From contig CARRLP010000001.1 of the NCBI GenBank assembly GCA_949055985.1, positions 1 to 22,104 of the forward strand: 22,104 nucleotides of DNA, given 5' to 3'. The position numbers and the translations under genes are program-made. Shown one piece after another: positions 2,142-21,243 of this stretch (positions are counted from its first letter, which is position 1; every line of letters begins with the position of its first letter). The notes under the pieces were generated by a model. It did no database searches, had not been told where the DNA came from, and saw only the letters and a program-made list of their open reading frames with translations. This DNA is from an uncultured Lachnospiraceae bacterium (GTDB taxonomy: Bacteria > Bacillota > Clostridia > Lachnospirales > Lachnospiraceae).

Positions 2142-2240
2142 ATAATGTGAGTAAACAAAAACAATATTGTTACTTACTGACACAGTTCCAAATGAAGCGT
2201 ACGGTCATTGGGGATTGCGTCGTATAGCAAATCAAAATTA

Positions 2241-2274
2241 TGCAGCAAGGAAGCTGCAGTAAATTCAAGGAGGA
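2241..2274 (+). promoter_or_regulatory. flagellin mRNA leader with two CsrA-type binding sites: BS1 in a hairpin loop and BS2 overlapping the SD
   Basis: Hairpin tgcagc/AAGGAA/gctgca at 2241-2258 puts GGA in the loop. The SD-overlapping site CAAGGAGGA lies at 2266-2274. This architecture matches the Bacillus subtilis hag leader controlled by CsrA-FliW. Confidence 0.5.
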
Positions 2275-2282
2275 AAAATATT

Positions 2283-3395
2283 ATGGCAATGGTAGTACAG
2301 CACAACCTTACAGCAATGAACGCAAACCGTCAGTTAGGCGTTACAACAAGCGGACAGTCCAAATCAACAGAGAAATTATCCACAGGTTACAGAATTAACC
2401 GCGCAGGCGATGACGCAGCAGGATTAAAAATCTCTGAGAAAATGAGAAGCCAGATCCGCGGATTGAACAAAGCTTCTTCCAACGCGCAGGACGGCGTATC
2501 CCTTATCCAGACAGCAGAAGGCGCATTAAACGAAGCGCACAGCATCCTTCAGAGAATGAATGAGCTTGCAGTTCAGGGCGCAAACGACACAAACCAAGGC
2601 ATCGACCGTGACGCAATCAACCAGGAGTTAAGCGCGTTGACAGAAGAGCTTGACCGTATTTCTGAAACGACACAGTTCAATAAGCAGAGCCTGTTAGACG
2701 GAAGCTTCACAGGAAAGAACCTTCAGGTAGGCGCAAACCAGAACCAGAAGATTACAATCAACATTGCGGCAATGAACGCAGTGGCAATCGGAATCAAACC
2801 GACAGGCGTTGGCGGAACATCCGGATACCTGACAACAAATGAAGTTGTTAAGAATCAGAAGGTTGGCGTTGACAATTCTGCCGCTCTTAGAGGATCCATT
2901 GGTAAATTGGCAGCATGCAATGCTCAGGTAGCTCCAATCTACTCAGCAAACGCAGCAGGCAAACCATACTTCAAGACAGCAAATGGAACAATCACAACTG
3001 ATTCTTCTGTAGTAAGAGCATCTGTTGAGAACTTGGCAAAATGCGCTGCGCAGATCTTCAAAGTGGCAACAAAGGCTGCAACAACAGTCAGCACGCCAAA
3101 CGTAAGGGATTACCAGCAGGCAACAGGTACCATCACAATGGTACAGAACGCAATCAACAATGTATCCAGCCAGAGATCCGCTCTTGGCGCATTACAGAAC
3201 AGATTAGAGCACACGATTGCAAACTTAGACAACGTATCTGAGAATACACAGGCAGCAGAATCCCGTATCCGTGATACAGATATGGCTTCTGAAATGGTAG
3301 AATACAGCAAGAACAACATTCTTGCGCAGGCTGGACAGTCTATGTTAGCTCAGGCAAACCAGTCAAATCAGGGTGTATTATCATTGTTACAGTAA
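2283..3395 (+). CDS. fliC: flagellin (370 aa)
   Basis: The N-terminus MAMVVQHNLTAMNANRQLG and the C-terminus ...LAQANQSNQGVLSLLQ are canonical flagellin D0/D1 segments. The central region is Ser/Thr-rich and variable. GGAGG at 2269-2273 precedes ATG 2283. The ORF-track start at 2208 is an upstream TTG. Confidence 0.95.
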   Translation: MAMVVQHNLTAMNANRQLGVTTSGQSKSTEKLSTGYRINRAGDDAAGLKISEKMRSQIRGLNKASSNAQDGVSLIQTAEGALNEAHSILQRMNELAVQGANDTNQGIDRDAINQELSALTEELDRISETTQFNKQSLLDGSFTGKNLQVGANQNQKITINIAAMNAVAIGIKPTGVGGTSGYLTTNEVVKNQKVGVDNSAALRGSIGKLAACNAQVAPIYSANAAGKPYFKTANGTITTDSSVVRASVENLAKCAAQIFKVATKAATTVSTPNVRDYQQATGTITMVQNAINNVSSQRSALGALQNRLEHTIANLDNVSENTQAAESRIRDTDMASEMVEYSKNNILAQAGQSMLAQANQSNQGVLSLLQ

Positions 3396-3686: not shown

Positions 3687-4028
3687 ATGGAGGAATTTTC
3701 AAATTTATTGTGGCACAATATTGAAATTGTTCAGTGCATTTGTAATAAAATCGAGAATCAGGAAGCGTACATTGAGGATATTCGGGGATACCTTCCTTCT
3801 CTTAATCAAATGATTACATCAATATTTACAAATATGCAGCAAGGGCAAATTTCTTTGGAATTGAATCAAGGCTTTATTATTCAGGCGCTAAATGATATTC
3901 TATATGGAATAGAAAATGAAGATTCTGTATTTTTGCTTGATGTATTGCGATATGGGTTATTAGAAATTTATGGATACATAAGTAGTGAACTGCAAAGTGA
4001 GGGCTGTTATGAATCAGTTAATATATAA
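3687..4028 (+). CDS. hypothetical small protein (113 aa) upstream of maf and overlapping it
   Basis: ATG 3687 is preceded by GGAGGGG (3674-3680). The ORF-track start 3660 is a TTG. No motif recognised, including the FlaG VIRQIP motif. The 3' end overlaps the maf start by 20 nt. Confidence 0.5.
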   Translation: MEEFSNLLWHNIEIVQCICNKIENQEAYIEDIRGYLPSLNQMITSIFTNMQQGQISLELNQGFIIQALNDILYGIENEDSVFLLDVLRYGLLEIYGYISSELQSEGCYESVNI

Positions 4029-5907
4029 AAAAAATCTGGAGGCGTTAAATGCGAAATATCCTATATGGGCGGCTCTTATAGACGGGGTAAAACGTAAAAA
4101 ACGAAATTTCAATGTTGAAGCAGAGCAGAGTTTCATGGGAGAAACTATTTTGAAAGTAACTCAAGATGGGAAAATGCGTTACTTAAATGGAAAATATGCT
4201 CCTTCGGCAGTAGTGGAACGTTGGTTTGAAAAACAGGGAAAAATAGAAGAATACGCGCCAATTGTGATAATAGGCATTTCAAATGGAGAACATATACGAC
4301 AAATTATAGAACGCTCCCCAAAGACTTCTAATATTTTAATTTATGAGCCATCTTTTGAATTATTCCGCAGGGCGATGCAAGAAGTGGATTTAACATTTCT
4401 TTTTGAGATGGATATTCCGGTAGGGATTATTGTTGAGGGATTAAATGAAGATGAGTTAGAAGCTTTCCTTTATTTATTTATATCTTATGACAATATGGCT
4501 TTTCTTCGGTGGTATATTTCAGGGAATTATCAGGAATTATTTCCAAAAGAAGTGGAAGAATTTGTAGGACGTTTAAAGAATCATGTGTCACAAATCCATA
4601 TTGGCTGGAATACAAAATTACGTTATACAAATGTCAGGGCAGTAAATGTATTTGTCAATCTGCCATATTTAGCAGATGGATACAGCATTCGGGAATTGTA
4701 TGGAATGCTTCCGGAAGACGTTCCGGTTATTGTCGTTTCAGCAGGCCCATCTTTAAATAAAAACATTATGGAATTGAAAAAAGCAGTCGGGAAAGCCTGT
4801 ATTATTTCAACAGATACTGCGATAAAGCCTCTCTTAAATGCAGGAATCGTGCCGAATTTCTTTATTATTATAGATGGGTTAAAGCCGGAAGTGCTATTTC
4901 AACATAAGGATATATCTAAAGTTCCTATGGTGACTATGACGGCGGTTTCCACAGAGCCGATGTCATGCCATAAAGGGAAAAAATTCTTTTATGGCGCGGA
5001 GTCTGCATTTGAAGATGAACTTACGGGAGATATAAAGAGGAGCCGTGACGAAGACAGTGACAGAGTGATACCGTTTCTTGTAACTGGCGGTTCTGTTGCG
5101 ACTTCGGCATATGCGCTGGGTTTAAATATGGGAGCTAAGACAGTGATATTAGTGGGTCAGGATCTTGCAATGACCGGGAATAAAACGCATGCAGACGGTA
5201 CATTTCAGGCGCAGATGGATCAGATTGACAAAAATAGCGGCGAATACTTTGAAGTGGAAGCTATAGATGGCGGCAAGGTTTTGACGAGACTTGATTTTGA
5301 TATGTACCGTAAATGGTTTGAAGACCATTTTAAGCAGTGGAATCATGTCACAGTCGTAGATGCGACAGAAGGCGGAGCATTAATTCATGGAACGAAAGTA
5401 ATGACTTTAAAAAAGGCAGTTCAAAAATATTGTGTGCATGAATTTAATGTAAAGTGGCATACGGATCGCTGCAAAAAATTATTTCAAGATGAACAGCGGG
5501 AAGTTGTGTTGGATTATTTTGCAAATTCCCTAAAAAAATTACAGGAAGTGAAGAAAAAAGCGACAGAAGGGATTCGTTTCTATGAACGTCTGGAGAAGAT
5601 GGCGAAAAAAAGCTCGGTATCAGATCAGGAGCTTGGAAAGGCTTTGAAAAAAATCAAGAAATTAAATCATTATATGGAAACTGACTATATGGCGCGCACT
5701 GTTATGGATAGTTTAGATGGTCTAAATTTTACGTTAAGGCCGCTTGCTTATCAATTAAGAGAGGATAAACGGAGCGAGCTTTTAGATGTGGCTAGTCAGG
5801 GAAAAGTGCTACTTTACGGGGTGGCAGTTGCAGTAGATGAAGTATCTGAGATAGCGGAAAAGACGATTGTGCAGTACGCCAATTCCAACAGGACGAAACG
5901 GAAATAA
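4009..5907 (+). CDS. maf: motility accessory factor (Maf family, DUF115/MptE-like), a putative flagellin glycosyltransferase
   Basis: The N-terminus MNQLIYKKNLEALNAKYP is typical of Maf proteins. A GPSL motif (VVSAGPSLNKN) precedes STDTAIKPLLNAGIVPNFFIIIDG. The protein is about 630 aa and adjacent to flagellin. ATG 4009 has GAGGG upstream. Track start 3985 is GTG. Confidence 0.7.
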   Translation: MNQLIYKKNLEALNAKYPIWAALIDGVKRKKRNFNVEAEQSFMGETILKVTQDGKMRYLNGKYAPSAVVERWFEKQGKIEEYAPIVIIGISNGEHIRQIIERSPKTSNILIYEPSFELFRRAMQEVDLTFLFEMDIPVGIIVEGLNEDELEAFLYLFISYDNMAFLRWYISGNYQELFPKEVEEFVGRLKNHVSQIHIGWNTKLRYTNVRAVNVFVNLPYLADGYSIRELYGMLPEDVPVIVVSAGPSLNKNIMELKKAVGKACIISTDTAIKPLLNAGIVPNFFIIIDGLKPEVLFQHKDISKVPMVTMTAVSTEPMSCHKGKKFFYGAESAFEDELTGDIKRSRDEDSDRVIPFLVTGGSVATSAYALGLNMGAKTVILVGQDLAMTGNKTHADGTFQAQMDQIDKNSGEYFEVEAIDGGKVLTRLDFDMYRKWFEDHFKQWNHVTVVDATEGGALIHGTKVMTLKKAVQKYCVHEFNVKWHTDRCKKLFQDEQREVVLDYFANSLKKLQEVKKKATEGIRFYERLEKMAKKSSVSDQELGKALKKIKKLNHYMETDYMARTVMDSLDGLNFTLRPLAYQLREDKRSELLDVASQGKVLLYGVAVAVDEVSEIAEKTIVQYANSNRTKRK

Positions 5908-5941
5908 TAGGATCACATGATACAGGGCATTACAAAAAGCA

Positions 5942-5975: not shown

Positions 5976-5987
5976 GTTATGTATCTT

Positions 5988-8300: not shown

Positions 8301-8369
8301 AAAGAATAAGAGTTAAATTGCGTTTTCTATCAGCATGGAAGCTGTATTTTATTCAGGGAGGAAGAAGAA

Positions 8370-8483
8370 ATGACGAAAAGGAAAGACATGCAGCGAAAAA
8401 TTGCATGGGGGGGGGAAAATCAGAATCTACTAAAAAGTGGAAAAAAATTCAAACTTTATATGGATTATCTCAAGAGACGTTAG
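8370..8483 (+). CDS. leader small ORF (37 aa) containing a G9 tract, a candidate phase-variable upstream peptide
   Basis: GGGAGG (8355-8360) lies 9 nt before ATG 8370. The SD context ttcagggagga echoes the duplicated flagellin leader. Codons tgg ggg ggg gaa span the G9 at 8407-8415. A +1 G fuses it to the long frame ending at 8605. Confidence 0.3.
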   Translation: MTKRKDMQRKIAWGGENQNLLKSGKKFKLYMDYLKRR

Positions 8484-8719
8484 GGGCAATTTTTTTGTTG
8501 CCTTTTTTTTGGTGTCTGCCGTTTGATCCGGTTATGGCTTGTAAAGGATATAAGTGTGTTGGGATAAGAATGGATAAGAATTGTTGGAAGGACGCCTATG
8601 TTTGAAACAAAGACAGCATGGGAAACGCAGTGAATATACTACAATTCTTTTTTTGCGTTTTATAACATTTTTTGCAACAGAAGATAATATGCCAAAATAG
8701 CTGGGAAGAAGGAATTAAA

Positions 8720-10300
8720 ATGAATTTAGAAGCTGAATTTGAACGGTTAAAAACATGTTCCCGTATTTTGATTTGGGGCGGCGGTTATCATACGAAAGAG
8801 GCGCTAAGGTTTTATAAATCTTTTTTTAGGGAACGGGACATACAGATTGTAGATAAGAATAAGGCAGGCCAAAGCATAGAAGGATATAAAATTATTGCTT
8901 CAGATGAAGCAGATTATTCGATTGATTATGTTGTGATTATGTCGTCAATATACCATGATGAAATTGAATATGCTTTGCGGAACAGACATGGTTATCAAGG
9001 GGCAGTGATAGGTTTATATGCGTTTCGGAGAGTTCTTTTAAAACTGGATTCATATGAAGAATGTATTGGGCATATGGAAGATTTTGTGTCTCATATGGAA
9101 CAAGGCATAGCAAGTTATTCTTACGACTATATATTTCAAGAAAACTATAGCGTATATAAAAAAATAAGGCTATATGCGTTTTGGGCGTCTTCTATTGGTG
9201 AATCAGTCCGGTATTTATCGGCATATTATGAAACTGTTTTTAAGGATAAGGCAGAAGATGAATACTGCCTGTTAATTCCCTATATAAAAGGGAATGATTT
9301 CGCGAATGGGCAATTTATAGAGGTTGTTTCCCGTACAGTTCCTATGGTTACATATTGCAACTGTCATTTTTGGGAGTATGCGGTGAAAAAGTACAGAGAG
9401 CGTTTTGATTTGACGTCTTATAATGAATTTAACGGTATTTTAGTGGATGCATATAATCAATTTGATGAACGGATTATAAACAGGACGTTTTGTGATAAAA
9501 AGTTTCCTTTGATTGCCTATACGCCGGAAGAACGTAAGATGGCGGAATATAAATTAAGGCAAATGGGCGTTTTTGGAGATTTCGTGTGTATATTTGCAAG
9601 AGATAACCACTATTTGCAGCATCAGTATGGACAGGCTTATGGAATTAATGAAATAAGAAATATGGATATCAATTCTTTTAAATCTGCAGTGGATTATTTG
9701 GAGGGACAGGGAGTAAAGGCAGTCCGCATGGGAAAAGTTGTCAACGGGCCGGTCAATCTGCCAAACTGCATAGATTATGCGGCGGATTTCCATAGCGACT
9801 TTATGGATTTATATTTATGCGGTAATTGCAAGTTTTATGCAGGGAGTTTGTCTGGGATTGTTGCGCTTGCCCAGCTTCAAAGCGCGCCTGTGGTTTTGCT
9901 CGGGGTGGTTCAGCTGGGGATTCACAATTCAATACCATATAGGAGCAGAGATATTTACGTCCCAAAGAAAATATATGACAAAAATAAGAAACGTTTTTTA
10001 AATTTTACGGAAATATGGGATGCGGAAATGGCCGCTAAGGACAAAATATCAAAATATTATGGGGAACACGGGCTTGAGTTTATAGAGCTTGGCAAAGAAG
10101 AAATAAAAGAAGCGATAGTGGAGATGAACGATAAATTAGATGGAGTGTATCAGGAAGACGAACAGGAAAAAGAACTTCAAAAGAAATATCATTTGCTGTT
10201 GGAAAACTGGATATTAGAGAATGGATACCAGTATTCTTATTTCTTGCATATTGACATAAGCGGCAGTTTTATTAAAAAGAATACATTTATGCTTGCATAG
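8720..10300 (+). CDS. hypothetical 526-aa protein, first gene of the rightward operon; possibly a sugar-transferase-like protein
   Basis: ATG 8720 is preceded by GGAAGAAGGAA. The ORF-track start 8672 is a TTG. No confident motif. The Rossmann-like N-terminus ILIWGGGYHTKEAL...IQIVDKN is suggestive only. Confidence 0.6.
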   Translation: MNLEAEFERLKTCSRILIWGGGYHTKEALRFYKSFFRERDIQIVDKNKAGQSIEGYKIIASDEADYSIDYVVIMSSIYHDEIEYALRNRHGYQGAVIGLYAFRRVLLKLDSYEECIGHMEDFVSHMEQGIASYSYDYIFQENYSVYKKIRLYAFWASSIGESVRYLSAYYETVFKDKAEDEYCLLIPYIKGNDFANGQFIEVVSRTVPMVTYCNCHFWEYAVKKYRERFDLTSYNEFNGILVDAYNQFDERIINRTFCDKKFPLIAYTPEERKMAEYKLRQMGVFGDFVCIFARDNHYLQHQYGQAYGINEIRNMDINSFKSAVDYLEGQGVKAVRMGKVVNGPVNLPNCIDYAADFHSDFMDLYLCGNCKFYAGSLSGIVALAQLQSAPVVLLGVVQLGIHNSIPYRSRDIYVPKKIYDKNKKRFLNFTEIWDAEMAAKDKISKYYGEHGLEFIELGKEEIKEAIVEMNDKLDGVYQEDEQEKELQKKYHLLLENWILENGYQYSYFLHIDISGSFIKKNTFMLA

Positions 10301-10349
10301 CATTCTGGCGGGAACAAAATTTGATGAATAAACAGGGGGAATTTGAATT

Positions 10350-11411
10350 ATGGCAGATAAAATCCGAATGGATTCGCACAAATTAATTTATCATCCAGAG
10401 AGGGTTGCGGCTTGGAAGCGTGGAGAAAATATATATCCGATTGAATTGGAAATAGGATTAACAAACGCCTGTAATCATAGATGCATTTTTTGCGCAGTGG
10501 ATTATACAGGTTACAAACCGACAATGCTTGAGGCGGATCTTTTAAAATTAAGGATCAGTGAGTTTGCAGAAAAAGGAGTGAAATCTATTATATATGCCGG
10601 AGAAGGGGAACCGCTTTTAAATAAAGACGCGGCAGATATTATTAATTTCACGAAAAAAAGCGGAATAGATGCGGCGTTATCTACAAATGGAGCATTGCTT
10701 ACGCCGGAAGCATCGAGAGACTGTCTGGCTTCTTTGACATGGATTCGTTTTAGTACGGCCGCAATTAGAGAAAAAACGTATGAGAAAATCCATCAATGCC
10801 GGAAAGGAGAGCTTAAAACTGTTTTAAATAATATTCAGGAAGCAGTCCGGACGAAAAAAGATCAAGGGCTCAAAACGACGATTGGCGCGCAATTATTGCT
10901 TCTGCCGGATAATAAAGATGAAGTTGTGGAGATGGCGAAGGAAATGAAAAAAATAGGAGTGGATTATTTTACGGTAAAACCATTTTCGCAGCATCCGTCA
11001 AGCGGCAATATCTTGCAAGTGGATTATCAGGAATTACTGGAATTGGAACGGGAATTAGAAGGAATTGGAACGGAAGAATTTAAAATATATTTCCGGGCGC
11101 ATTCTATGAAGAAATTGGCATGTGAGCGCGGTTATAAGCAATGTCTGGCGCTGCCATTTATGGTATACATTGATGCGAAGGGGAATTTATGGCCCTGTAT
11201 TGTGTTTATGGGGCAGGAACAGTTTAGTTATGGAAATTTATATAATGCATCATTTGAAGAAATATGGGAAGGAGAGCGGAGGAAGAAGCTGATTCAAGAG
11301 TTTTCCCAGATGGATTTAGAGAAAAATTGCAGGGAGTTGTGCAGGCTGGATGAAATGAATAAGTATCTCAATGATTTGAGAAATCCCGGACTTCATGTAA
11401 ATTTTATATAG
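10350..11411 (+). CDS. radical SAM protein (paralog A) with a Cys-rich C-terminal region
   Basis: CNHRCIFC is a CxxxCxxC motif about 40 aa from the N-terminus. Further Cys residues lie in the C-terminal third, possibly for an auxiliary cluster. The protein ends ...HVNFI. It is a clear paralog of the 13218 gene. Confidence 0.75.
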   Translation: MADKIRMDSHKLIYHPERVAAWKRGENIYPIELEIGLTNACNHRCIFCAVDYTGYKPTMLEADLLKLRISEFAEKGVKSIIYAGEGEPLLNKDAADIINFTKKSGIDAALSTNGALLTPEASRDCLASLTWIRFSTAAIREKTYEKIHQCRKGELKTVLNNIQEAVRTKKDQGLKTTIGAQLLLLPDNKDEVVEMAKEMKKIGVDYFTVKPFSQHPSSGNILQVDYQELLELERELEGIGTEEFKIYFRAHSMKKLACERGYKQCLALPFMVYIDAKGNLWPCIVFMGQEQFSYGNLYNASFEEIWEGERRKKLIQEFSQMDLEKNCRELCRLDEMNKYLNDLRNPGLHVNFI

Positions 11412-11461
11412 TATCCGTTTATTCCAATAGGAGAATAAATTTTAAGAGTTAGGAGAGAACG

Positions 11462-12307
11462 ATGGATTTAAAAGAGCGGGCGGCTGAAATAAGAAAAATG
11501 ATTTTTAAAATGGCATACCGGGGAGGGAGCGGGCATTTGGCATCGGCTTTTTCGATTGTGGAAATTTTAACGGTTTTATATTTTGGGGGAATTTTAAATA
11601 TAGATCCGAAAAATCCGGATTGGGCGCAAAGGGATAAATTGATATTAAGCAAGGGACACGCGAGTTTGGCATTATATAGTGTATTGGGTATGAAGGGATT
11701 TTTTCCACAAAAAGAGTTACAGACTTTTTGCAAGCCGGGTTCAGAATTCGGAGGAGAACCCAGAATGGGGCATATAACGGGCGTAGAGGCGACTACAGGC
11801 TCGCTTGGGCATGGGCTTTCATTTGGCGTGGGGATTGCAATGGCGCATAAGATGAATGGGGAAGCGAACAGGACATATGTGATAATTGGAGATGGCGAAT
11901 GCCAAGAAGGAAGCATATGGGAAGCTGTAATAGCGGCGCCGCACCACAAACTAGACAATTTGACAGTGATTTTAGATAATAACAGGCTACAGGCAATGGG
12001 GAAAGTGGAGGATATTCTTGCGTTGCGCCGCCTGCGGGAAAGCTGGGAAAATTTCGGCTGGGGCATCGCAACAGTAGATGGGCACGATATAGAAAAGCTT
12101 TGTAAATGTCTGGATAAGGACAGACAAACGGAGGATGGCAGACCGCATTTAATTTGTGCGGATACAGTGAAAGGAAAAGGCGTTTCCTTTATGGAAAGCG
12201 AGCCCATCTGGCATTATCGGATGCCGAATGAACAGGAATTAGAAATTGTATTGCAAGATTTGGGCATGACAAGAGAGGAGCTGATTCAATGCGAAATGAA
12301 TATTTAG
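11462..12307 (+). CDS. transketolase, N-terminal (TPP-binding) subunit
   Basis: GHITGVEATTGSLGHGLSFGVGIAMA and VIIGDGECQEGSIWEA are the transketolase TPP-binding motifs. The protein is 281 aa. AGGAGA precedes the ATG. Confidence 0.85.
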   Translation: MDLKERAAEIRKMIFKMAYRGGSGHLASAFSIVEILTVLYFGGILNIDPKNPDWAQRDKLILSKGHASLALYSVLGMKGFFPQKELQTFCKPGSEFGGEPRMGHITGVEATTGSLGHGLSFGVGIAMAHKMNGEANRTYVIIGDGECQEGSIWEAVIAAPHHKLDNLTVILDNNRLQAMGKVEDILALRRLRESWENFGWGIATVDGHDIEKLCKCLDKDRQTEDGRPHLICADTVKGKGVSFMESEPIWHYRMPNEQELEIVLQDLGMTREELIQCEMNI

Positions 12308-13212
12308 CGGAACTATATCATCTTGCAAAAAATGATCGGAATGTGCTTTCTTTAGTGTCCGATAATGGCATGATTGTATATGATGAATTTCGGGCGGCTT
12401 TTCCAGAGCAATATTTTAATTTTGGCATTTCAGAATGCCATATGATTGCGGCGGCGGCAGGAATGGCGACATGTGGGAAAATTCCTTTTGCATATACAAT
12501 TAGTTCATTTTTGGCGTACCGGGCATACGAATTTTTAAGGCTGGACGTATGTCTGGAAAATTTGAATGTAAAGATAGTTGGAATAGGCACAGGCGTATCT
12601 TATGGCTATTTAGGCCCTACGCATCATACGACAGAGGATTTGGCTCTTTTGCGATCACTGCCTAATTTGACTATATTTTCTCCGGCAAGCCCAATGGAAG
12701 CGCGCGAGGCGGTACGGGCTGCATATCAAATAAAGGGACCTGTCTATATCCGGCTTGGCAGCAGCGGGGAACCGGAGGTTCATACGGAAAAATTTTCTTT
12801 TGAAATTGGGAAAGGGCAGGTCATATTTGACGGGCATGACATTGCGCTGATAACTTCAGGGGCAATCACGGCTGAAGCGAAAATAGCGGCGGAGCGGCTT
12901 ATGGAAGAAGGAATATCAGTTAAGCTGATTAGTATGCACACGATAAAGCCTTTTGATGAGGATCTTATAGCAAAAACGGCTGAAAAGGTTTCTAAATTAG
13001 CTGTAATAGAAGAACATAATATTATCGGCGGGTTAGGAAGCGCAGTGGCTGAGACATTAGCAGACAGGCAGATTGCAATTCCTTTTTATAGAATTGGGTT
13101 ATATGATCAATTTGCAAAAGGCTATGGAACGGGACAACAGGTACGGATGCAAAATAGGCTGGACAGTGAAGGGATTTATCAACAAATCAGCCAATATGTA
13201 AAGGAAGGATGA
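12289..13212 (+). CDS. transketolase, C-terminal (pyrimidine-binding) subunit
   Basis: FNFGISECHMIAAAAGMATCG is the transketolase Pyr-domain motif. The protein is 307 aa. It overlaps the N-subunit gene by 19 nt. GAGGAG precedes the ATG. Confidence 0.85.
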   Translation: MRNEYLAELYHLAKNDRNVLSLVSDNGMIVYDEFRAAFPEQYFNFGISECHMIAAAAGMATCGKIPFAYTISSFLAYRAYEFLRLDVCLENLNVKIVGIGTGVSYGYLGPTHHTTEDLALLRSLPNLTIFSPASPMEAREAVRAAYQIKGPVYIRLGSSGEPEVHTEKFSFEIGKGQVIFDGHDIALITSGAITAEAKIAAERLMEEGISVKLISMHTIKPFDEDLIAKTAEKVSKLAVIEEHNIIGGLGSAVAETLADRQIAIPFYRIGLYDQFAKGYGTGQQVRMQNRLDSEGIYQQISQYVKEG

Positions 13213-13217
13213 CAAAA

Positions 13218-14327
13218 ATGGAGTCAGAAAAATTAATATTAGACGGCAGTAAAGTATTATGGCACAAAGATAGAATAGAGCAATGGAAAAGGGGGGAGCG
13301 TTTTGCGCCTGTTACGATTGATTGCGCGCTGACTACGAAATGCAGTTACCGCTGTGTGTATTGTTATGGAAAAATGCAGTGCATAAACCAGTCGGATAAT
13401 CTTGACGAAGAAACAATTTTACGCTTTTTAGAGGATGCGGCGGAAATAGGAGTAAAAGCGGTTAGTTTTGTAAGCGATGGAGAAAGCACATGTAACCCAC
13501 ATTTGAAAAAAGCGGTTTTACATGGCAAGAGCCTTGGATTAGATATGGCTCTTGGCACAAATGGCTTTTTGTTAAAAGATGAGGAATTAGAGGAAATTTT
13601 GCCGGCGCTTACTTATCTGCGTTTTAATATATCGGCTGGGGAGAGGGAACGATATGCCGAAATTCATGGCTGCGCCTTAAAATGCTATGATAAAGTAATT
13701 GAAACGATGAAAAAAGCGGTAGATATTAGGGAGAAGAAAGATCTGGCGGTTACAATTGGAATGCAAATGGTTTTAATGCCGGATTTTGCAGATCAGATTC
13801 TTCCGCTTACAAAGTTAGGCAGAGAGATTGGCGTGGATTATCTCGTGATTAAACATTGTAGTGATGATGAGGAAGGCACGCTTGGCGTAAATTACGAAAA
13901 ATATGATGCCGTGATTCCGGTTTTAAAGGAAGCGGAAACTTATTCTACGGATAAGTATCAGGTTTCGGCAAAATGGTCAAAGATTTTAAGCCATGGGAAG
14001 AAAAGTTACTGTAAGTGTTTTGGAGCCCCCTTTATTCTTCAAATGTCGGGTACGGGCCTTGTGGCTCCTTGTGGAATGTTTTTCAATGAGAAATACAGTA
14101 AATACCATATTGGAAATATTAAGGAAAAGAGATTTAAAGAGATATTTGAAAGCGACAGGTATTGGGAAGTTATGAAAATGATAACAGACGAAACTTTTGA
14201 TCCAAACCGCGATTGCGGTACGCTCTGTCTTCAGCATAAAACAAATGAGGCATTGTGGAAGATCTATCAAACAGGGACAATTCCAAAGAGTCCGGAAATT
14301 GAACCGAATCATATTAATTTTATATAA
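13218..14327 (+). CDS. radical SAM protein (paralog B) with a Cys-rich C-terminal region
   Basis: CSYRCVYC is a CxxxCxxC motif. Its N-terminus and C-terminus (...HINFI) align with paralog A. ATG 13218 has AAGGAAGG 9 nt upstream. The track start 13209 abuts that RBS, so 13218 is preferred. Confidence 0.75.
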   Translation: MESEKLILDGSKVLWHKDRIEQWKRGERFAPVTIDCALTTKCSYRCVYCYGKMQCINQSDNLDEETILRFLEDAAEIGVKAVSFVSDGESTCNPHLKKAVLHGKSLGLDMALGTNGFLLKDEELEEILPALTYLRFNISAGERERYAEIHGCALKCYDKVIETMKKAVDIREKKDLAVTIGMQMVLMPDFADQILPLTKLGREIGVDYLVIKHCSDDEEGTLGVNYEKYDAVIPVLKEAETYSTDKYQVSAKWSKILSHGKKSYCKCFGAPFILQMSGTGLVAPCGMFFNEKYSKYHIGNIKEKRFKEIFESDRYWEVMKMITDETFDPNRDCGTLCLQHKTNEALWKIYQTGTIPKSPEIEPNHINFI

Positions 14328-14366
14328 ATTTCAGAAATCTGGAAAAATAAGCATGGAGGCTGAAAA

Positions 14367-15896
14367 ATGGCACTTGTTGTGACAAAAGCGGAATTTAGGA
14401 ATATAAGAAAGGAATTGCGGGCGGAAGGGAAGAAAGTGGTTCTCTGCCATGGCGTATTTGATTTAGTGCATCCCGGCCATATCATTCATTTTGAAGAAGC
14501 AAAAAAGATGGGGGACGTTTTAGTGGCGTCTGTCACGGCGGCAAAATATGTGAGAAAAGGTCCGGATAGGCCGTATTTTGGAGATGAGATGCGTCTGAAA
14601 TTTTTATCTTCGATTGCGTATATTGATTATATTCTTTTGTCAGAGGGCTTTACTGTAGATGATATTATTGAAGCGGCGGAGCCGGACTTGTATGTAAAAG
14701 GCTCGGAGTATCAGGCGCAAGAAGATGACATTACCGGAAAGATTGCCGGAGAAATAGAGCTGGTCCGTAAACATGGAGGGGAAATTGCTTATACAGGCGG
14801 GCAGGTGTTTAGTTCAACGAAACTAATCAACCATGCTTTTCCATCACTTTCTGAGGAAGTGAAACAATTTATGAAATCATTTTCAGATAAGTATAGTTTA
14901 TCTGAAATCAGAGCGCTGGCGGAAAAAATTTCGGGCTTTAAGATAGCGGTAATTGGAGACGTAATTATAGATGAATATATTTATTGCAATGTACAGGGGT
15001 TAATGTCGAAAGACAGGGGATATTCTGCCCGTTATAGATATGTGGAGCAGTATTTAGGCGGTTCGTTAGCCGTGGCGAGGCATATTGCCTCATTTTGTGA
15101 CGACGTCACTCTTTTGAGCGTTGTAGGGAAAGAGGAGGCGGTACATAGCCGGATGTTAGACGAACTTGGCGATAAGATGAGGATAGACGTAACGTTTAGC
15201 GATGTTTTTGAAACCATTATAAAAACACGGTACGTTTCCATGAATGAAAAACGGGAAGAGCTTGATAAAATTTTCGCTGTAAATAACCTTCCTGTATATA
15301 TGCGCATTGATAAACCTGCATTAGATAAGTTTAAAGAAAAAATAAAAGAGAAAATAGAACAGTGTGACGTGGTTATTTTGTGTGATTTTGGGCATGGGCT
15401 GATAGATGAAGAAGTGATGGATTTGATTCAGTCTAAGGCGAAGTTTTTAGCGTTGAACTGCCAGACTAATTCATCGAATTATGGAAAAAATTTAATTACA
15501 AAATATAAACGGGCAGATGTATTTGCGATTGACCAGAAAGAATTGGGGCTGGCATTTGCGAATTACCGTTTAGATGAGCAAGAGCTTCTTCAGAAGTTAG
15601 AAAAACATTTGGACTGCCATGGGTGGCTGACACAGGGATCCCAAGGGGCAGTTTCGATTGAAGATGGAGAAATAAAACATTGTCCGGCATTTGTTTTAAA
15701 AGTGAAAGACACCATTGGAGCAGGGGATGCGTTCTTTTCCATTGCAAGCTTATTTGCGGCAGCAGGCGCTTCCATGGAGATGGGAACATTTATGGGAAAT
15801 ATTGCGGGGGCATTGGCGACAAATATCGTAGGAAACAAAAAAGGCATTGATAAAGTAGATGTACTGAAGTACGCTTCTACTTTACTTAATATATGA
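14367..15896 (+). CDS. bifunctional heptose-phosphate nucleotidyltransferase / sugar kinase (HldE/RfaE-like) with reversed domain order
   Basis: The N-terminal 140 aa carry a cytidylyltransferase-like HxGH motif (GVFDLVHPGHIIHF). The C-terminal 330 aa form a PfkB-family kinase with a DTIGAGDAF anion-hole motif. In E. coli HldE the kinase is N-terminal. Confidence 0.7.
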   Translation: MALVVTKAEFRNIRKELRAEGKKVVLCHGVFDLVHPGHIIHFEEAKKMGDVLVASVTAAKYVRKGPDRPYFGDEMRLKFLSSIAYIDYILLSEGFTVDDIIEAAEPDLYVKGSEYQAQEDDITGKIAGEIELVRKHGGEIAYTGGQVFSSTKLINHAFPSLSEEVKQFMKSFSDKYSLSEIRALAEKISGFKIAVIGDVIIDEYIYCNVQGLMSKDRGYSARYRYVEQYLGGSLAVARHIASFCDDVTLLSVVGKEEAVHSRMLDELGDKMRIDVTFSDVFETIIKTRYVSMNEKREELDKIFAVNNLPVYMRIDKPALDKFKEKIKEKIEQCDVVILCDFGHGLIDEEVMDLIQSKAKFLALNCQTNSSNYGKNLITKYKRADVFAIDQKELGLAFANYRLDEQELLQKLEKHLDCHGWLTQGSQGAVSIEDGEIKHCPAFVLKVKDTIGAGDAFFSIASLFAAAGASMEMGTFMGNIAGALATNIVGNKKGIDKVDVLKYASTLLNI

Positions 15897-15934
15897 TGAT
15901 TCTAAAGATATATTTATAAAATGGAGGGTAAGAA

Positions 15935-17575
15935 ATGAAGATTTTGTTGGTGGTTCCGCAATACTATAGCCGGAAAGAACGATATTATCAAATGCCATTA
16001 GGCTTAGCGTATGTGAATGCAGCTCTGCGGGAAGCAAATTTAGATGTGCAATGCCTGAATATGAACCATATTGAAGCAGAAGACGCCTATTCAGTTTTAG
16101 CTGAACGGGTAGTAAATTCCAATATTGACGTTGTCCTTTGCGGCGGAATAAGCCCGCTTTGGAAAACGATTGAAAAAGTGTTTGATACAGTTAAAAGGGC
16201 AAAAGCTTCCATAATTACTGTGGGGGGGGGTGGAGCCTTTACGTCGGAGCCTCTTATTTCAGCGGAACTTCTTGAAGTAGATTATGCTGTAATTGGAGAA
16301 GGGGAGATTACAGATGTAGAGCTTATTCAAACGTTGATGGCGAATCAGAATGTAAGCAATGTAAAAGGAATTGTATATAAAACGCCGGACGGATATAGGC
16401 AGACGGCTCCGAGGGAAGAAATTGCCGATGTGGATTCCATTCCATTTCCATGCTATGAGGGGTTTGACATGGATTTATATTTAGAAAATCAAATGGTGAG
16501 CGATGAATATTATTCTTTTTATTCGGACAAGCCGAGAATTATGCCGATGATTTTAGGCAGGTCATGCCCTTATCAATGCAAATTTTGTTTTCACCCTATA
16601 GGAAATAAATACAGGGTGCGAAGTCTGGATAATTTTTTTATGGAACTGGATCAATGGAAGAATAAGTATGCTCCAACCTGTATTTTGATATTAGATGAAT
16701 TATTTAGCGCAAGCGTTGAAAGAGTGTATGAGTTTTGTGAAAGAATAAAAGGATATGAGATAAAATGGATTGTCCAAATGCGGGTGGATATTATCACGAA
16801 AGAGTTATTGCAGACAATGCGGGACGCCGGATGCCTCAGCATCAGTTATGGACTTGAAAGTTTTAGCCCTGCAGTTTTGAAAAATATGAGAAAACATATC
16901 TCTTTAGCAGACATAGAAAACGCTTTAAAATTGACTTATGAAGCAAAAATAGACATTCAGGGCAATTTTATTTTTGGAGACGAGTTAGAAAATGAGCATA
17001 CGATATATGAAACATTGCGGTTTTGGTTTCAGCATCCAGAATATAAAATTAATTTGGGGTGGATAGAGACATATCCGGGATGCGGCTATTATCAGGAATT
17101 ATCAAAAAATTGGAGCGTTGAGGAGAAAAAAGCATTTTTAGAAATGAGTGAATGGCTGACAAATTTAACAAAGATGCCAGATGAAGAATATGGGAAATAT
17201 AAAGTTGTGATTCAACTGCTTACATTTTATTATAACCCAGATTGTGTGAAAGAAAAAGAGACGCGGACAGACGAAAATGGCGATGGGATTATTGAAGCGA
17301 AGTGCGTGCATTGCGGTTCGGTAAATCGGTGGGCAGGAGTTAAAAAATATCTGCTAAATCAATCGTATTTTAAATTATGCTGCCGGAAATGCAATCATAG
17401 GAATGTGATTTACAGCAGGAAAGAAAGGTTAAAAAATTGGGATTTAATTCTGCCATTATGTGAGAAAATGGCTTTGGCAACAAAGGAAGATGAATTTATT
17501 AAAGCGGTAAACGCTTTATATGAGACGTATATGGTGACGCATGACCCAGAAAATCCATTTCCTGTTTTGTTTTAG
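15935..17575 (+). CDS. B12-binding-domain radical SAM enzyme (class B) with a C-terminal Cys4 zinc-ribbon-like tail
   Basis: The N-terminus ILLVVPQ...MPLGLAYVNAAL...VVLCGG is a B12-binding-like domain. The radical SAM motif is CPYQCKFC. The C-terminus has CVHCGS...CCRKCNH. A G9 tract lies at 16222-16230, encoding GGGG. Confidence 0.75.
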   Translation: MKILLVVPQYYSRKERYYQMPLGLAYVNAALREANLDVQCLNMNHIEAEDAYSVLAERVVNSNIDVVLCGGISPLWKTIEKVFDTVKRAKASIITVGGGGAFTSEPLISAELLEVDYAVIGEGEITDVELIQTLMANQNVSNVKGIVYKTPDGYRQTAPREEIADVDSIPFPCYEGFDMDLYLENQMVSDEYYSFYSDKPRIMPMILGRSCPYQCKFCFHPIGNKYRVRSLDNFFMELDQWKNKYAPTCILILDELFSASVERVYEFCERIKGYEIKWIVQMRVDIITKELLQTMRDAGCLSISYGLESFSPAVLKNMRKHISLADIENALKLTYEAKIDIQGNFIFGDELENEHTIYETLRFWFQHPEYKINLGWIETYPGCGYYQELSKNWSVEEKKAFLEMSEWLTNLTKMPDEEYGKYKVVIQLLTFYYNPDCVKEKETRTDENGDGIIEAKCVHCGSVNRWAGVKKYLLNQSYFKLCCRKCNHRNVIYSRKERLKNWDLILPLCEKMALATKEDEFIKAVNALYETYMVTHDPENPFPVLF

Positions 17576-17592
17576 GAAAAGGATTTCCGCCA

Positions 17593-18288
17593 TTAAATTG
17601 TGACATTAAAGTATTGTTGGGCCTTACAGTATTTTTTCTGCCTGTTTCTGATTAAGACACTGCCGTCAGGGTTACGCAGCACAACGGAATCATCGGAGAC
17701 CGGCTGTCCATATACAAACGCATCTACTCCAATGGATACACGGTTTCCGATTGGTTCATTGCCTATAATTTTAGCTCCGGCGGCTAAGTAGAGCCCTTTT
17801 CCGAGTTTTGGGACAGTTTCGCCGACAGGGCTTTCACCGGTATTGATGGTGACATTTTGGCCTATTACAAGAAAATCACTGTAAGCTGCATTGCCAATTA
17901 CGCTTCCTACCGGATGTGTAAGGAAGAATATTTCCGGCAGTTTGCCTTTGTAAGAGATAAAAAAACTATGTAAAGTTTTATTCAAGTAAATTAATTTGTC
18001 ACAGACAGATTTGTTTGCGGAAAGCTCCCACAGTGAGTTAGCCCAAAAATATAAAAACTGGGCATACTGGTCAGAATGCAGATGCGAGAAAAATGTTTCG
18101 CCTTGGTTATCTGAATATGCGGAATTTTTAATAAAACGGAAGCAATGCTCTGTCCGTTCTAAGGCGCGTTCAAAAGCGGCGTCAACGTCGCTGCCTTTTA
18201 GAGTATGAGTATTGCGATCCGGAAAAAAAAGCTCTAACTGATGCAGCGTATATGTTTGAAGTTCTTGTTTCGGTAATGATAGGTTCAT
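17593..18288 (-). CDS. hexapeptide-repeat (left-handed beta-helix) acetyltransferase, serine-acetyltransferase-like, a probable sugar O/N-acetyltransferase
   Basis: The C-terminal half has hexapeptide repeats (VGSVIGNAAYSDFLVIGQNVTINTG...). ATG at 18288 overlaps the upstream TGA as ATGA, with GGAAG in front. The longer track ORF start at 18405 falls inside the GT2 gene. Confidence 0.6.
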   Translation of the reverse strand: MNLSLPKQELQTYTLHQLELFFPDRNTHTLKGSDVDAAFERALERTEHCFRFIKNSAYSDNQGETFFSHLHSDQYAQFLYFWANSLWELSANKSVCDKLIYLNKTLHSFFISYKGKLPEIFFLTHPVGSVIGNAAYSDFLVIGQNVTINTGESPVGETVPKLGKGLYLAAGAKIIGNEPIGNRVSIGVDAFVYGQPVSDDSVVLRNPDGSVLIRNRQKKYCKAQQYFNVTI

Positions 18289-19256
18289 TTCTTCTTCCTT
18301 TTTTGAATATAAATTGGCTCTAAAATAAAACGTGGGAGAATTGCGTATGGCCATACATGGAACCATATCGTAGGATATTTGTATGTATTTAAAAATAATA
18401 TCCATTTATCGTCCATATCATACTGATTATCCTCTACGCTGTATTTTAGGATAGAATCTTTAATAAATCCTTTCATGTCAGTAAGAAAGATTTTTTTCAT
18501 CTGGCTTTTTGGAAAACCGGCTTTTACGGCTGTTTGGAGCAAAAGTCTTTTATATTGCTTTACCCAGACTTCAAATAAATTAAATCCGCCGCTGTTATTA
18601 TTTTTTGCGGCTAAATAGGGGGCTTTTGTCAGGATCATTTTAGTATTTTTGCCTGAGAGAATGTGAAATACGATATGCGCGTGTAGAAAATGGGTTCCAA
18701 AATATTTCTCAGGATGCTTTATTTGTTTAAATTTGCTCATTTTCAGAACGGTTGCAGATATATACGTTACATAAACGCCAATGTAATTCATCAGAAGGGT
18801 TTTATCGTAAGTAATCAGATCGTTTGTTTCCCTAAGTTTTATTCTTGGCGCTTTTCTAATGTCCGGATTGAATGTCTGTGTTGAATATGTAAAAGAATTT
18901 ATATTAATATAGGCTGGTCTTTCTGTTTTTATCAGATATAATATTTTTTTTATCGCTCCGGGCAGCAATATGTCATCGTCCGAGAGAAACTGTATATATT
19001 CGCCGTTCGCTTTTTGGAAACAGTTAAAAAAATTTTTATCCATACCCAAATTTTTTGAATTACGATAATAACGTATCTTATGTTCTTTGCAATATTTTTT
19101 CATTACTTTTGGGGTCTCGTCTGTGGAAGCGTTATCTGATACAAGGATTTCAACGCCGTCTTCCAACTGCCCTAGCGCGCTTTCTAATGACTGGCATAAT
19201 AAATGACAGCGGTTATAGGTAGGGATAGCGACTGTCAGTATAATTTTTTGTCCCAT
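18285..19256 (-). CDS. family 2 glycosyltransferase (GT-A fold)
   Basis: ILTVAIPTYNR...SDNASTDET...DDD fits the GT2 DxD architecture. ATG 19256 has AGAGGT upstream. The N-terminal extension in the track ORF overlaps the upstream gene. Confidence 0.7.
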   Translation of the reverse strand: MGQKIILTVAIPTYNRCHLLCQSLESALGQLEDGVEILVSDNASTDETPKVMKKYCKEHKIRYYRNSKNLGMDKNFFNCFQKANGEYIQFLSDDDILLPGAIKKILYLIKTERPAYININSFTYSTQTFNPDIRKAPRIKLRETNDLITYDKTLLMNYIGVYVTYISATVLKMSKFKQIKHPEKYFGTHFLHAHIVFHILSGKNTKMILTKAPYLAAKNNNSGGFNLFEVWVKQYKRLLLQTAVKAGFPKSQMKKIFLTDMKGFIKDSILKYSVEDNQYDMDDKWILFLNTYKYPTIWFHVWPYAILPRFILEPIYIQKRKKK

Positions 19257-19260
19257 GATC

Positions 19261-20193
19261 TTACCTCTTTCTTTTGGTTTCATAATACTGGATTGTTTTT
19301 TGGATGCCTTCTTCAAAGGGAATTTCAGGCTTCCAGCCGGTATCTCTTGTAAGAGGTTCAATATTGATACAAGAACTTGGCATTATGCCGGGGGAGCTGA
19401 TTTTTCTTTCGGGAGGGGGAGTTTTTTCTCCAATGCCTAAAGGAAGCGATGGGTTTATCATGTCCCGAATAGTTAAGACGTATTCCCGAAGTGTTTTGTG
19501 CGTTCCGCTTCCTATTCCATATGTAATATTATGCCTGCCTTTCTCTCCAATTTTAATAATTGCTTTTGCTACATCTGATACATAGACAAAATCCCAATTA
19601 GACTGGAGATTGCCATAGACAGGGTATTTGCCATCTAAAAGAGTGGTAATCGTATAAGTCAGGATATTGTCTTCTGTTCTTCCTTCCCCATATGTGCTTG
19701 GAAGAACAGTCCAAATCATATCCTGCCCTAATTGCGCGGCAACGGCTTCTAACAGATAGTGGACGGAAGTTTTTGTGGCTCCATAGATGTCAATGGGCGT
19801 CTGTTTCCTTGAAAAATCAATGACGCATACATTATAAACATATTCTGCCACTGTGCCTGCGGCCAGAAATAGTTTGCATTTTAAATATTTAGAGAGACGT
19901 AACATATCCAGAGAAGTTTCGATATTGCTTAATTGCAAAGGAATGTTGTTTTTTTCTTTCCCAGAAACGCCTGCCCAGCCAAGATGATAAAATATATCAT
20001 ATGTTTTTCCAGACAGCCTTTGCGCCAGTTCTTTAAATTGATAGCCGGCAGTTATTGTTTTTACGGAAGAATTATGAAATGGCATAGAGGAGGGGGAGGA
20101 GGTCAGGACGGTTACGTTAGCGCCTGATTTTAATAATTCCGCAACAACATATCTGCCGATAAATCCGGTTCCTCCTGTAAGAATGGCTTTCAT
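19261..20193 (-). CDS. NAD(P)-dependent epimerase/dehydratase/reductase (extended SDR)
   Basis: The N-terminus ILTGGTGFIGRYV is a Rossmann motif. The catalytic YxxxK motif is YGATK. The protein is 310 aa. Confidence 0.75.
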   Translation of the reverse strand: MKAILTGGTGFIGRYVVAELLKSGANVTVLTSSPSSMPFHNSSVKTITAGYQFKELAQRLSGKTYDIFYHLGWAGVSGKEKNNIPLQLSNIETSLDMLRLSKYLKCKLFLAAGTVAEYVYNVCVIDFSRKQTPIDIYGATKTSVHYLLEAVAAQLGQDMIWTVLPSTYGEGRTEDNILTYTITTLLDGKYPVYGNLQSNWDFVYVSDVAKAIIKIGEKGRHNITYGIGSGTHKTLREYVLTIRDMINPSLPLGIGEKTPPPERKISSPGIMPSSCINIEPLTRDTGWKPEIPFEEGIQKTIQYYETKRKR

Positions 20194-20203
20194 ATTCTTC
20201 CTC

Positions 20204-21217
20204 CTACTGTTCCATGCGTTTTAGAATGATGTCTGCATAGCTGTCTATATCGTCGGTTGTATTCGCCGACAGGCTTTCGCAATGTCTGCAGATTGGTATA
20301 TCGTCTTTCCTCTTTTTTAAGTGGAGTTTTTGGTACTGGCAAAGTTTTTCGCCATTCCAAATATCCGCAATTTTTTCGGTTTTTAAATCGCCTAAAATAT
20401 ATTCTGTTTTCCAGTCTACACAGCACAGATGCGCAATGCCGGAATGGTTTATTACCATCGTAGTAAATAAAAATGGGCAGACTTCTTTTGGTTGTAGCTC
20501 CTGGCCGTAAGTGCCTTTATGGGCGTTGTTTATTTTTGCGCCGATATTTGTGTCCTGCCAAAGGGTGGAAGAAATGGTTTCTACAAATATTTCGTCAGAC
20601 ACTTTTTCAAATGTCTGGTAAAAATTCTGTTTTTCTGTTTCGGTATAACCAATATCGCTGTATTTAATAAAGATTTTACAATTCTGTTTATTTTTATAGA
20701 AAAACTCGATTTTTTTATAGAAATCCTGAAAGTCCATTTCGTATTGGCATACGTCTTTGTACTGTTGTTCATTAATTCCATTTACTGAAATATTTAATAT
20801 GTCAAGACCTGCCTCAATAAGCTCAAGGCTGAGCGTTTCGTTTAGAAGCGTGCCGTTGGTCGTGATTTCAATACATTCTGCGGCCTCTGCTTTTTTGGCA
20901 TAGGCTGCCATTTGGGCAATCTTGGGATTCATCAAGGGCTCTCCGATTTTAAACAGCCTTAATTTTTTGATTTTTTGTCTGCCCCAGCAAGAGACAATGT
21001 CGTCTATGATTTTTTGGAAAAGTTCCAAAGACATTGCGCCAAATGTTACATTAGATTTTTTTATGGTTTCCATGTCTGAGTGGAAACAAAAATTGCATTT
21101 TAAATTACAGGCGCTGCATACGTCAATTTGAATTGCAAAGGGCGCGGAAAGCGGCAGAACTTCCTGTAACGGGGTTCTTTCCCTTGCGTAAATTTTGGCT
21201 CTTCTTATTGCGCTCAT
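20204..21217 (-). CDS. radical SAM enzyme with a C-terminal SPASM-type auxiliary cluster domain
   Basis: CNLKCNFC is a CxxxCxxC motif. The C-terminal Cys array CPFLF...HLCCVDW...CQYQ...CRHC is SPASM-like. GGAGGT lies 7 nt before ATG 21217. Confidence 0.75.
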   Translation of the reverse strand: MSAIRRAKIYARERTPLQEVLPLSAPFAIQIDVCSACNLKCNFCFHSDMETIKKSNVTFGAMSLELFQKIIDDIVSCWGRQKIKKLRLFKIGEPLMNPKIAQMAAYAKKAEAAECIEITTNGTLLNETLSLELIEAGLDILNISVNGINEQQYKDVCQYEMDFQDFYKKIEFFYKNKQNCKIFIKYSDIGYTETEKQNFYQTFEKVSDEIFVETISSTLWQDTNIGAKINNAHKGTYGQELQPKEVCPFLFTTMVINHSGIAHLCCVDWKTEYILGDLKTEKIADIWNGEKLCQYQKLHLKKRKDDIPICRHCESLSANTTDDIDSYADIILKRMEQ

Positions 21218-21243
21218 CGTTGTACCTCCGTGTGGTCTGCTTT

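Follow-up and report, generated by a model that had tools for sequence, protein, structure and literature searches.

A 22,104-nucleotide stretch of contig CARRLP010000001.1 from an uncultured Lachnospiraceae bacterium, called the window below, carries a run of nine G (G9) inside the gene for a class B, i.e. cobalamin (B12)-binding, radical S-adenosylmethionine (SAM) enzyme. The gene lies in a putative flagellin-glycosylation island, and the tract is very probably a hypermutable contingency locus of that island. This phase-variation reading is supported by sequence comparison: public assemblies contain, at the homologous position, tracts of G7, G8, G9, G10 and G11, of which G9 alone keeps the gene in frame (ON), while the other four lengths (OFF) truncate the product ahead of its catalytic core. 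From these data we infer the slippage mechanism, its reversibility and rate, the chemistry of the enzyme and the glycan phenotype. A contingency locus was taken to have a repeat of at least about seven G or C, expression altered by the number of repeat units, polymorphism among near-identical strains, and reversible switching at ~1e-5 to 1e-2 per division. The run at 16222-16230 exceeds this length, and the data on expression and polymorphism are given below.

A G9 tract in a B12-binding radical-SAM gene

The nine consecutive G were read on the + strand, where they extend over the codons GTG GGG GGG GGT GGA for V96, G97, G98, G99 and G100 within ...IITVGGGGAFT.... The initial annotation had placed the run in frame in a B12-radical-SAM open reading frame (ORF), within the B12-binding domain, and position, frame and the Pfam match PF02310 (residues 19-130, 46.7 bits versus a cutoff of 32.1) agree with that placement. 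Its description of the window as visibly AT-rich holds in direction, as the G+C content is 39%, though the AT-richness is moderate rather than extreme. Its claim that such a run is improbable by chance was borne out, with two G runs of at least nine observed in the window (16222-16230 and 8407-8415) versus 0.084 and 0.028 expected from analytic Markov estimates of order 1 and order 2, respectively (Poisson P ~0.003 to 0.0004). The rest of the G-run spectrum comprises eight G5, one G6, no G7 and no G8, and the longest C run does not exceed five. With the codon usage of the window (GGG for 20% of Gly and GTG for 26% of Val codons), the probability that V-G-G-G-G is coded with a run of at least nine G is 0.010. 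Across 32 homologs with identities down to ~40% (alignment A1), G98, G99 and G100 do not vary, so the oddity resides in the choice of codons and not in the residues. The G9 run is thereby confirmed to exceed chance.

The 546-residue enzyme is encoded by an ORF that begins with ATG, is preceded at a distance of seven bases by the ribosome-binding site GGAGGG, and converges on a gene of the opposite strand ending at 17593. In addition to PF02310, the Pfam domain PF04055 (Radical_SAM) was matched at residues 205-363 with 62.3 bits, both above their cutoffs, and the cluster-binding residues C211, C215 and C218 are invariant, a composition typical of class B radical-SAM enzymes. An additional domain at the C-terminus of the protein includes four conserved cysteines (C457, C460, C483 and C486 in alignment A1), and the nearest solved structures align over the radical-SAM core only. 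No NCBIfam equivalog (BchE, HpnJ, PhpK, HpnR and others) was reached at its cutoff, the best being BchE with 130 bits versus 481. In the public collection, 134 blocks list the exact protein, and its NCBI record, derived from a metagenome-assembled genome (MAG), reads 'radical SAM protein [Eubacterium sp.]'.

In-silico edits of the tract revealed that gain or loss of one or two G brings in a stop at codon 112-115, before the radical-SAM core, and the CX3CX2C motif, being downstream of the tract, is missing from all OFF products. The predicted N-terminal products are a 112-residue protein with VGGW for G7, 114 residues with VGGV for G8, 113 residues with VGGGW for G10 and 115 residues with VGGGV for G11. 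For out-of-frame tracts, gene callers report the rest of the gene as a separate 413-residue ORF. No evident Shine-Dalgarno sequence was found upstream of this remainder, which is therefore probably not expressed, as far as its sequence tells.

Tract lengths in public assemblies

The length spectrum was obtained from a protein and contig collection, in which the 90%-identity cluster of the 546-residue protein served as the comparison group and OFF lengths were found by exact look-up of the predicted products. Within the species, G7 was counted on ~23 contigs, G8 on ~52, G9 on ~300, G10 on ~88 and G11 on ~9. The spectrum is thus centred on the ON length, with an OFF share of ~36% of contigs. Full-length ON members account for the ~300 contigs (P0121 200, P0122 77, P0126 18, and others), whereas 413- or 412-residue members starting at L134 or M135 occur on ~110 contigs, ~105 of them with the 413-residue form (P0123, P0124, P0125 and P0127). 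As this remainder is called separately on contigs of up to 232 kb, the truncation is not an effect of contig edges. In-frame products of G6 (545 residues) and G12 (547 residues) were absent on exact-sequence look-up, which fits a need for exactly four glycines.

Reading the DNA directly gave G9 in the window, L001 and L002, G8 in L005, L097, L101 and L105, G10 in L006-L008, L093-L096, L098-L100 and L102, and G7 in L103. Three protein haplotypes could be told apart. Haplotype A, that of the window, comprises 77 ON and 33 OFF contigs, the latter with G7, G8 or G10; haplotype B comprises 203 ON and 132 OFF (G7, G8, G10 and G11), and haplotype C 18 ON and 6 OFF (G7, G10 and G11). Each out-of-frame length is therefore found on two or three haplotypes, i.e. 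it is homoplasious. Since the OFF state is the consensus in about a third of the assemblies, the spectrum implies that OFF cells often become the majority within a host, by selection or bottlenecks.

The comparison of tract length among related strains had been proposed in the initial annotation as a check, and its outcome is the five lengths given above; the predicted frameshift and truncation by a change of one nucleotide were likewise recovered, the products of 112-115 residues being present exactly as translated. An invariant tract together with orthologs free of G runs had been named as the refuting outcome. The tract varies, while most distant homologs do use mixed glycine codons. Searches with tract-flank patterns in JGI metagenome contigs returned nothing in a first scan and five chance matches unrelated to the window in a second, the organism being absent from that collection, and among the short OFF-product contigs that were traced to sample names no sample contained both states.

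Clonal backgrounds and controls

The comparison with L001 and the window covered 16 loci from the same species. Among these, six differ by 0 single-nucleotide polymorphisms (SNPs) over 14-21 kb and nevertheless carry G8 (L097 and L101) or G10 (L093, L096, L098 and L099), and L103, a contig of 914 bases with 0 mismatches to the window, carries G7. Lengths of G8 to G10 therefore coexist over 14-21 kb without a mismatch, besides recurring on two to three haplotypes. The indels among the 0-SNP loci are confined to poly-G tracts, save for N-fills of scaffolds and two deletions of 7 bp, which relative to the window are at 18252-18258 in L002 and at 11486-11492 in L097. One of the two contigs is scaffolded and has an N gap, and the deletions may be real or scaffolding artefacts.

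Tracts of other composition and genes without tracts were used as controls. The A8/T8 tracts at 8044, 8503 and 18223 were invariant wherever readable (11-16 of the 16 loci each). Seven tract-free neighbour genes had only a few percent of truncated forms, mostly on short contigs, for instance ~12 truncated versus 382 full-length forms of the RfaE-like gene and ~4 versus ~660 of the epimerase. In the cluster of a tract-free ortholog, L009, in which the loop is coded GGA GGA GGC GGA, only in-frame fragments at contig edges were seen and no frameshift products. The clonal comparison and the controls argue against both general assembly noise and ordinary gene decay.

The clonal background extends to public mouse-gut data. 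Positions 5935-22104 of the window (16,170 bases) are 100% identical, without gaps, to the 121-kb mouse-gut contig NODE_23 of ENA assembly ERZ1755894 (L001). Several further mouse-gut assemblies differ from the window by 0-1 SNP over 14-21 kb, and therefore one clone appears to be widespread in laboratory mice. The relatives of the protein come from Lachnospiraceae and Oscillospiraceae MAGs, many of them in mouse gut catalogues. Among the GTDB representative genomes no copy of the gene from the species of the window was found, the best match being 73% identical.

The tract among orthologs

In a sister species with 73% nucleotide identity, GTG GGG GGG GGT is retained at the same codons, and there the tract was found as G8 (L003), G10 (L004) and G7 (P0152) beside ON forms (P0149). 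A third species-level cluster contains a split product of 106 + 426 residues (P0153 and P0017). Most other homologs code the loop in mixed codons with G runs of 2-5. Two distant orthologs are poly-G-coded in their own ways: L012, from Oscillospiraceae, has TGC GGG GGG GGG ATG at the same motif, and L010, from a Clostridium sp. MAG, has a G8 elsewhere in the gene, where W-G-G-N replaces the K-N/E-K of its relatives. Because the sister clusters retain the tract and distant orthologs code poly-G differently, with separate poly-G coding in three lineages of orthologs, the pattern points to selection for mutability, or switchability, of the radical-SAM gene, so far as codon comparison can show it.

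The islands around homologs in several gut Clostridia contain one to four further G or C tracts of at least eight bases. The G or C tracts recorded there, of 8-11 bases and many of them inside ORFs, include those of the L010 and L012 orthologs themselves and are located at 10722-10729 in L010, 8462-8470 and 17283-17292 in L012, 14795-14803 in L009, 5298-5306 and 17558-17567 in L015, and 18991-19000 in L023, with three in L025 and four in L034. Several of the intergenic ones share the form Gn-TA(A/G)A.

The surrounding island and its other tracts

Pfam and NCBIfam matches present the window as an island of flagellin, Maf-like and sugar-pathway genes (Table 1). The flagellin gene is adjacent to the island, which has nucleotide-sugar genes (GmhA-like, GmhB-like, RfaE-like and epimerases) and further glycosyltransferases (TIGR04372, GT2 and GT1-like). 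The Maf/PseD-like protein remained below two other cutoffs, with 21.1 bits versus 23.5 for Maf_flag10_N and 107.6 versus 670 for NCBIfam FlagModPseD. The leftward genes include GmhA-like and GmhB-like ones and an epimerase. The rightward operon (8720-17575) encodes, in order, a TIGR04372 glycosyltransferase, a SPASM radical-SAM enzyme, a split transketolase, a second SPASM radical-SAM enzyme, an RfaE-like kinase/nucleotidyltransferase and the B12 radical-SAM enzyme; it is followed on the other strand, convergently, by genes for a hexapeptide acyltransferase-like protein, a GT2, an epimerase, a third SPASM radical-SAM enzyme and a thiamine pyrophosphate (TPP) enzyme. No pseudaminic or legionaminic acid (Pse/Leg) genes were seen in the window. 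The sugar pathway at 5988-21996 is unusual for a flagellin island in its heptose genes, split transketolase and TPP (acetolactate-synthase-like) enzymes, and the radical-SAM enzymes of the same interval number four, three of the SPASM type and one that binds B12. An antisense ORF of 252 residues, rich in Ser, Pro and Cys, at 11449-12207 on the - strand lies wholly inside the gene for the N-terminal part of the transketolase (11462..12307) and is probably a spurious shadow ORF. Scans for Rfam families and tRNAs gave no match in the window.

Table 1. Features of the window around the radical-SAM gene, with coordinates in the window
Feature	Coordinates	Strand	Evidence
Flagellin gene, presumed glycan acceptor	2283..3395 or 2208..3395	+	Pfam Flagellin_N, Flagellin_C
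Maf/PseD-like (MptE-like) putative flagellin glycosyltransferase	3985..5907	+	PF01973, 1.3e-34
Small ORF with strong ribosome-binding site GGGAGG	8370..8483	+	ORF analysis, in-silico edits
Second G9 tract, intergenic, ahead of the operon, inside the small ORF	8407..8415	+	sequence, locus comparison
Intrinsic-terminator-like hairpin and T run	8482..8510	+	terminator scan; fold -12.3 kcal/mol
Upstream genes of the operon that includes the radical-SAM gene	8720..15896	+	Pfam, NCBIfam
Class B (B12-binding) radical-SAM gene, 546 residues, last gene of the operon	15935..17575	+	ORF list, Pfam
B12-binding domain, residues 19-130, with the GGGG loop coded by the tract	15989..16324	+	Pfam PF02310
G9 homopolymer, putative slipped-strand switch; in-frame (ON) length G9	16222..16230	+	sequence; lengths at the homologous site of public assemblies
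TGA stop of the +1 frame class (G10, 113 residues; G7, 112 residues)	16273..16275	+	in-silico edits; public P0155, P0158, P0157, P0160
TAG stop of the -1 frame class (G8, 114 residues; G11, 115 residues)	16278..16280	+	in-silico edits; public P0156, P0159, P0161
C-terminal 413-residue remainder, TTG at L134, called when the tract is out of frame	16334..17575	+	P0123, P0124, P0125, P0127; loci L005-L008, L093-L102
CX3CX2C cluster motif (C211, C215, C218)	16565..16588	+	translation; invariant in alignment A1
A8 tract (T8 on +) in the GT2 glycosyltransferase gene 18285..19256	18944..18951	-	locus comparison

Besides the tract in the radical-SAM gene, the island features two more variable poly-G tracts, and the three vary in length independently of each other. 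The second tract was read as G7, G8, G9, G10 or G11 in the compared loci, and called products of 79 and 96 residues imply G12 and G13. The length of the small ORF around it depends on the tract, with 20 residues for G8, 37 for G9 and 78 for G10, and the 78-residue G10 form (~194 contigs) is commoner than G9 (~130 contigs). The hairpin behind it begins at the stop codon used by the small ORF in the G9 state, whereas the G10 ORF reads through the hairpin. The third tract is ~3.9 kb past the right end of the window, at 20022-20032 of L001 (15321-15333 in L002, 19623-19632 in L005 and 19624-19635 in L008), and ranges from G9 to G13 across assemblies. It occupies the Shine-Dalgarno position of a 37-residue ORF, 8 nt ahead of its ATG, and this ORF is followed by a terminator-like hairpin and a gene for a 571-residue GT2-like protein. 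Several contigs end at the third tract or carry N's beside it.

Both modules consist of a small ORF, a terminator and a glycosyltransferase gene, with the ORF stop abutting the hairpin, which suggested that tract length might set how far ribosomes mask the terminator. Such a phase-variable, translation-coupled attenuation would be an undescribed mechanism and would make the island a multi-switch phasome; on balance we consider it fairly unlikely. It stays at the level of a hypothesis because the comparisons returned nothing, with no Pfam match for the small ORFs beside the second and third tracts, no homolog of their DNA in the loci of other species, and the empty Rfam and tRNA scans. If it were true, the attenuation tracts and the radical-SAM frameshift switch would together generate combinatorial glycan states.

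The A8 tract of the neighbouring GT2 gene was considered as a true switch and rejected. Only its A7 allele is common, truncating GT2 to 107 residues (116 residues from an upstream start) on ~274 contigs versus ~266 intact ones, and this allele was found only on one divergent haplotype (L005-L007) and not in the 0-SNP clone. It looks like decay structured by lineage; at most, the tract would be a slow switch.

Alternative explanations

The length variation might be real and yet non-adaptive, if the GGG-coded glycine loop simply forms a mutational hotspot in a dispensable gene that is recurrently pseudogenised. The GGG(G) protein motif is invariant, so that G-rich coding is partly forced, and the adjacent GT2 gene, with its common, lineage-following A7 frameshift, provides a nearby example resembling ordinary decay. 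This explanation is unlikely, since the codon choice has a chance probability of only ~1% and most homologs avoid G-run coding, the tract is kept in a sister species at 73% nucleotide identity, L012 codes its poly-G differently at the motif, and L010 has gained poly-G at another codon. Moreover, ON is the majority on all three haplotypes beside four OFF lengths, a coexistence that could hardly persist unless back-switching were frequent or ON were selected for, and two or three tracts cluster within one surface-glycan island. It is very unlikely that the true length is always G9 and the homopolymer was miscalled by short-read consensus or scaffolding. Homopolymers are error-prone, the lengths were taken from contigs rather than reads, and several contigs break off at the longer third tract (G10-G13) or carry N's next to it. 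An error of ~36%, however, would be far above the short-read expectation, as consensus error at nine-base homopolymers is generally far below that value, and in the same loci the three A8/T8 tracts show no variation. Length combinations also recur in separate records (G10 with G11 in L093 and L098, G10 with G10 in L095 and L096), the two-step lengths G7 and G11 are found on long contigs of up to 232 kb, and the three poly-G tracts vary independently, which also makes a G-specific consensus error unlikely. That the tract is ordinary, stable glycine-coding sequence is hardly conceivable: every glycine codon starts with GG and the loop is a conserved one, but five lengths were observed and frameshifted products are abundant.

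Several points weigh against phase variation at the G9 tract. The tract lengths of short-read consensus may include some homopolymer error, and contig counts are not independent, as one sequencing run may recur in ENA, NCBI and Logan, although the length pattern is found again inside each of the three haplotypes. The lengths represent assembly consensus, and both heterogeneity within a population and reversibility are predictions of the reading; reversion is deduced rather than observed, which also favours non-adaptive variation. Clostridia usually possess MutS/MutL mismatch repair, and slippage is expected to be lower than in Campylobacter. No NCBIfam equivalog at cutoff indicates the substrate of the enzyme, and the role of the island in flagellin glycosylation is suggested by its gene content.

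Proposed switching mechanism

In the mechanism that we propose for the contingency locus, slipped-strand mispairing during replication would add or remove single G's. G9 would preserve the frame and encode VGGGG, the conserved loop in the B12-binding domain, whereas G7, G8, G10 and G11 would shift the frame after residue 97-99 and lead to a stop at codon 112-115, yielding OFF products without the CX3CX2C cluster, the radical-SAM core and the Cys-rich C-terminus. Because the radical-SAM gene is the last on its strand, no polar effect is expected, and the frameshift would affect this enzyme alone. The gene context makes it most likely that the enzyme tailors a heptose-derived flagellin sugar in a cobalamin-dependent radical reaction, e.g. 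a C-methylation. A population would then be a mixture of cells with and without the modification, differing in their glycan rather than in motility, and host antibody, phage or bottlenecks could shift the majority state.

The flagellins of Lachnospiraceae-type Clostridia are dominant mucosal targets of IgA and T cells as well as classic antigens of mouse colitis and Crohn's disease. If the proposed switch is true, stochastic variation of the flagellin glycan would be a simple escape route from antibody or phage. Many public metagenomes contain the clonal mouse-gut strain, and its ON and OFF states are readable from sequence, which makes it a ready test system in which the states could be correlated with host, cage, IgA status and phage load.

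Comparison with known systems

To our knowledge, phase variation in gut commensals has been described mostly for DNA inversions. The searchable literature, which is incomplete so that absence of evidence is all it can provide, contained no description of flagellin glycosylation being phase-varied by repeats in Lachnospiraceae. The mechanism is a familiar one; the taxon, the class of the switched gene, the separately coded tracts of orthologs and the strength of the evidence from public data make this a useful case that can be tested directly.

The closest precedent is the flagellin glycosylation locus of Campylobacter jejuni and C. coli, where changes of the flagellin glycan arise from G9/G10 tracts within maf and Cj1295-type genes (PMC8355987, PMC3068675). 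As in maf1/maf4 and Cj1295, an intragenic tract of ~9-10 G here would switch a gene for the flagellin glycan between ON and OFF through frameshifts, several tracts are present per glycosylation island beside flagellin and Maf-type genes, and the length spectrum is centred similarly, on G9/G10 in C. jejuni (PMC8355987). The host here differs in being a Gram-positive commensal of the gut Clostridia and not an epsilonproteobacterium without mismatch repair. The switched gene encodes a B12-binding radical-SAM enzyme instead of a Maf or Cj1295-type (DUF2972) protein, and the sugar pathway, as predicted from its genes, is of the heptose/transketolase/radical-SAM kind in place of Pse/Leg nonulosonate. 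In Helicobacter (H. pylori and H. canadensis), and in prokaryotes generally, slippage in coding homopolymers causes reversible truncation (PMC2823697, PMC2831843); the organisms and genes are different ones, and the evidence here comes from hundreds of metagenome assemblies and not from isolates.

Among gut Clostridia, flagellar phase variation has been reported for Clostridioides difficile, whose flgB switch operates via DNA inversion (PMC13464465). This switch and the other invertons of gut Clostridia and Bacteroides share with the proposed G9 switch a flagellum-related surface phase variation in gut Clostridia. The C. difficile switch is a recombinase-mediated, site-specific inversion that acts on transcription of the flagellar regulon, in contrast to the frameshift in one tailoring enzyme proposed here, in which no inverted repeats or recombinase are involved.

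With class B radical-SAM enzymes such as the BchE and HpnR families, the switched protein has in common the N-terminal B12-binding Rossmann domain with its Gly-rich loop, the CX3CX2C core and the placement in a secondary sugar-modification cluster. GenK, Fom3, TsrM and CysS are class B radical-SAM C-methyltransferases of sugars and antibiotics. The protein departs from the named families in remaining below every equivalog cutoff and in its additional four-Cys domain at the C-terminus.

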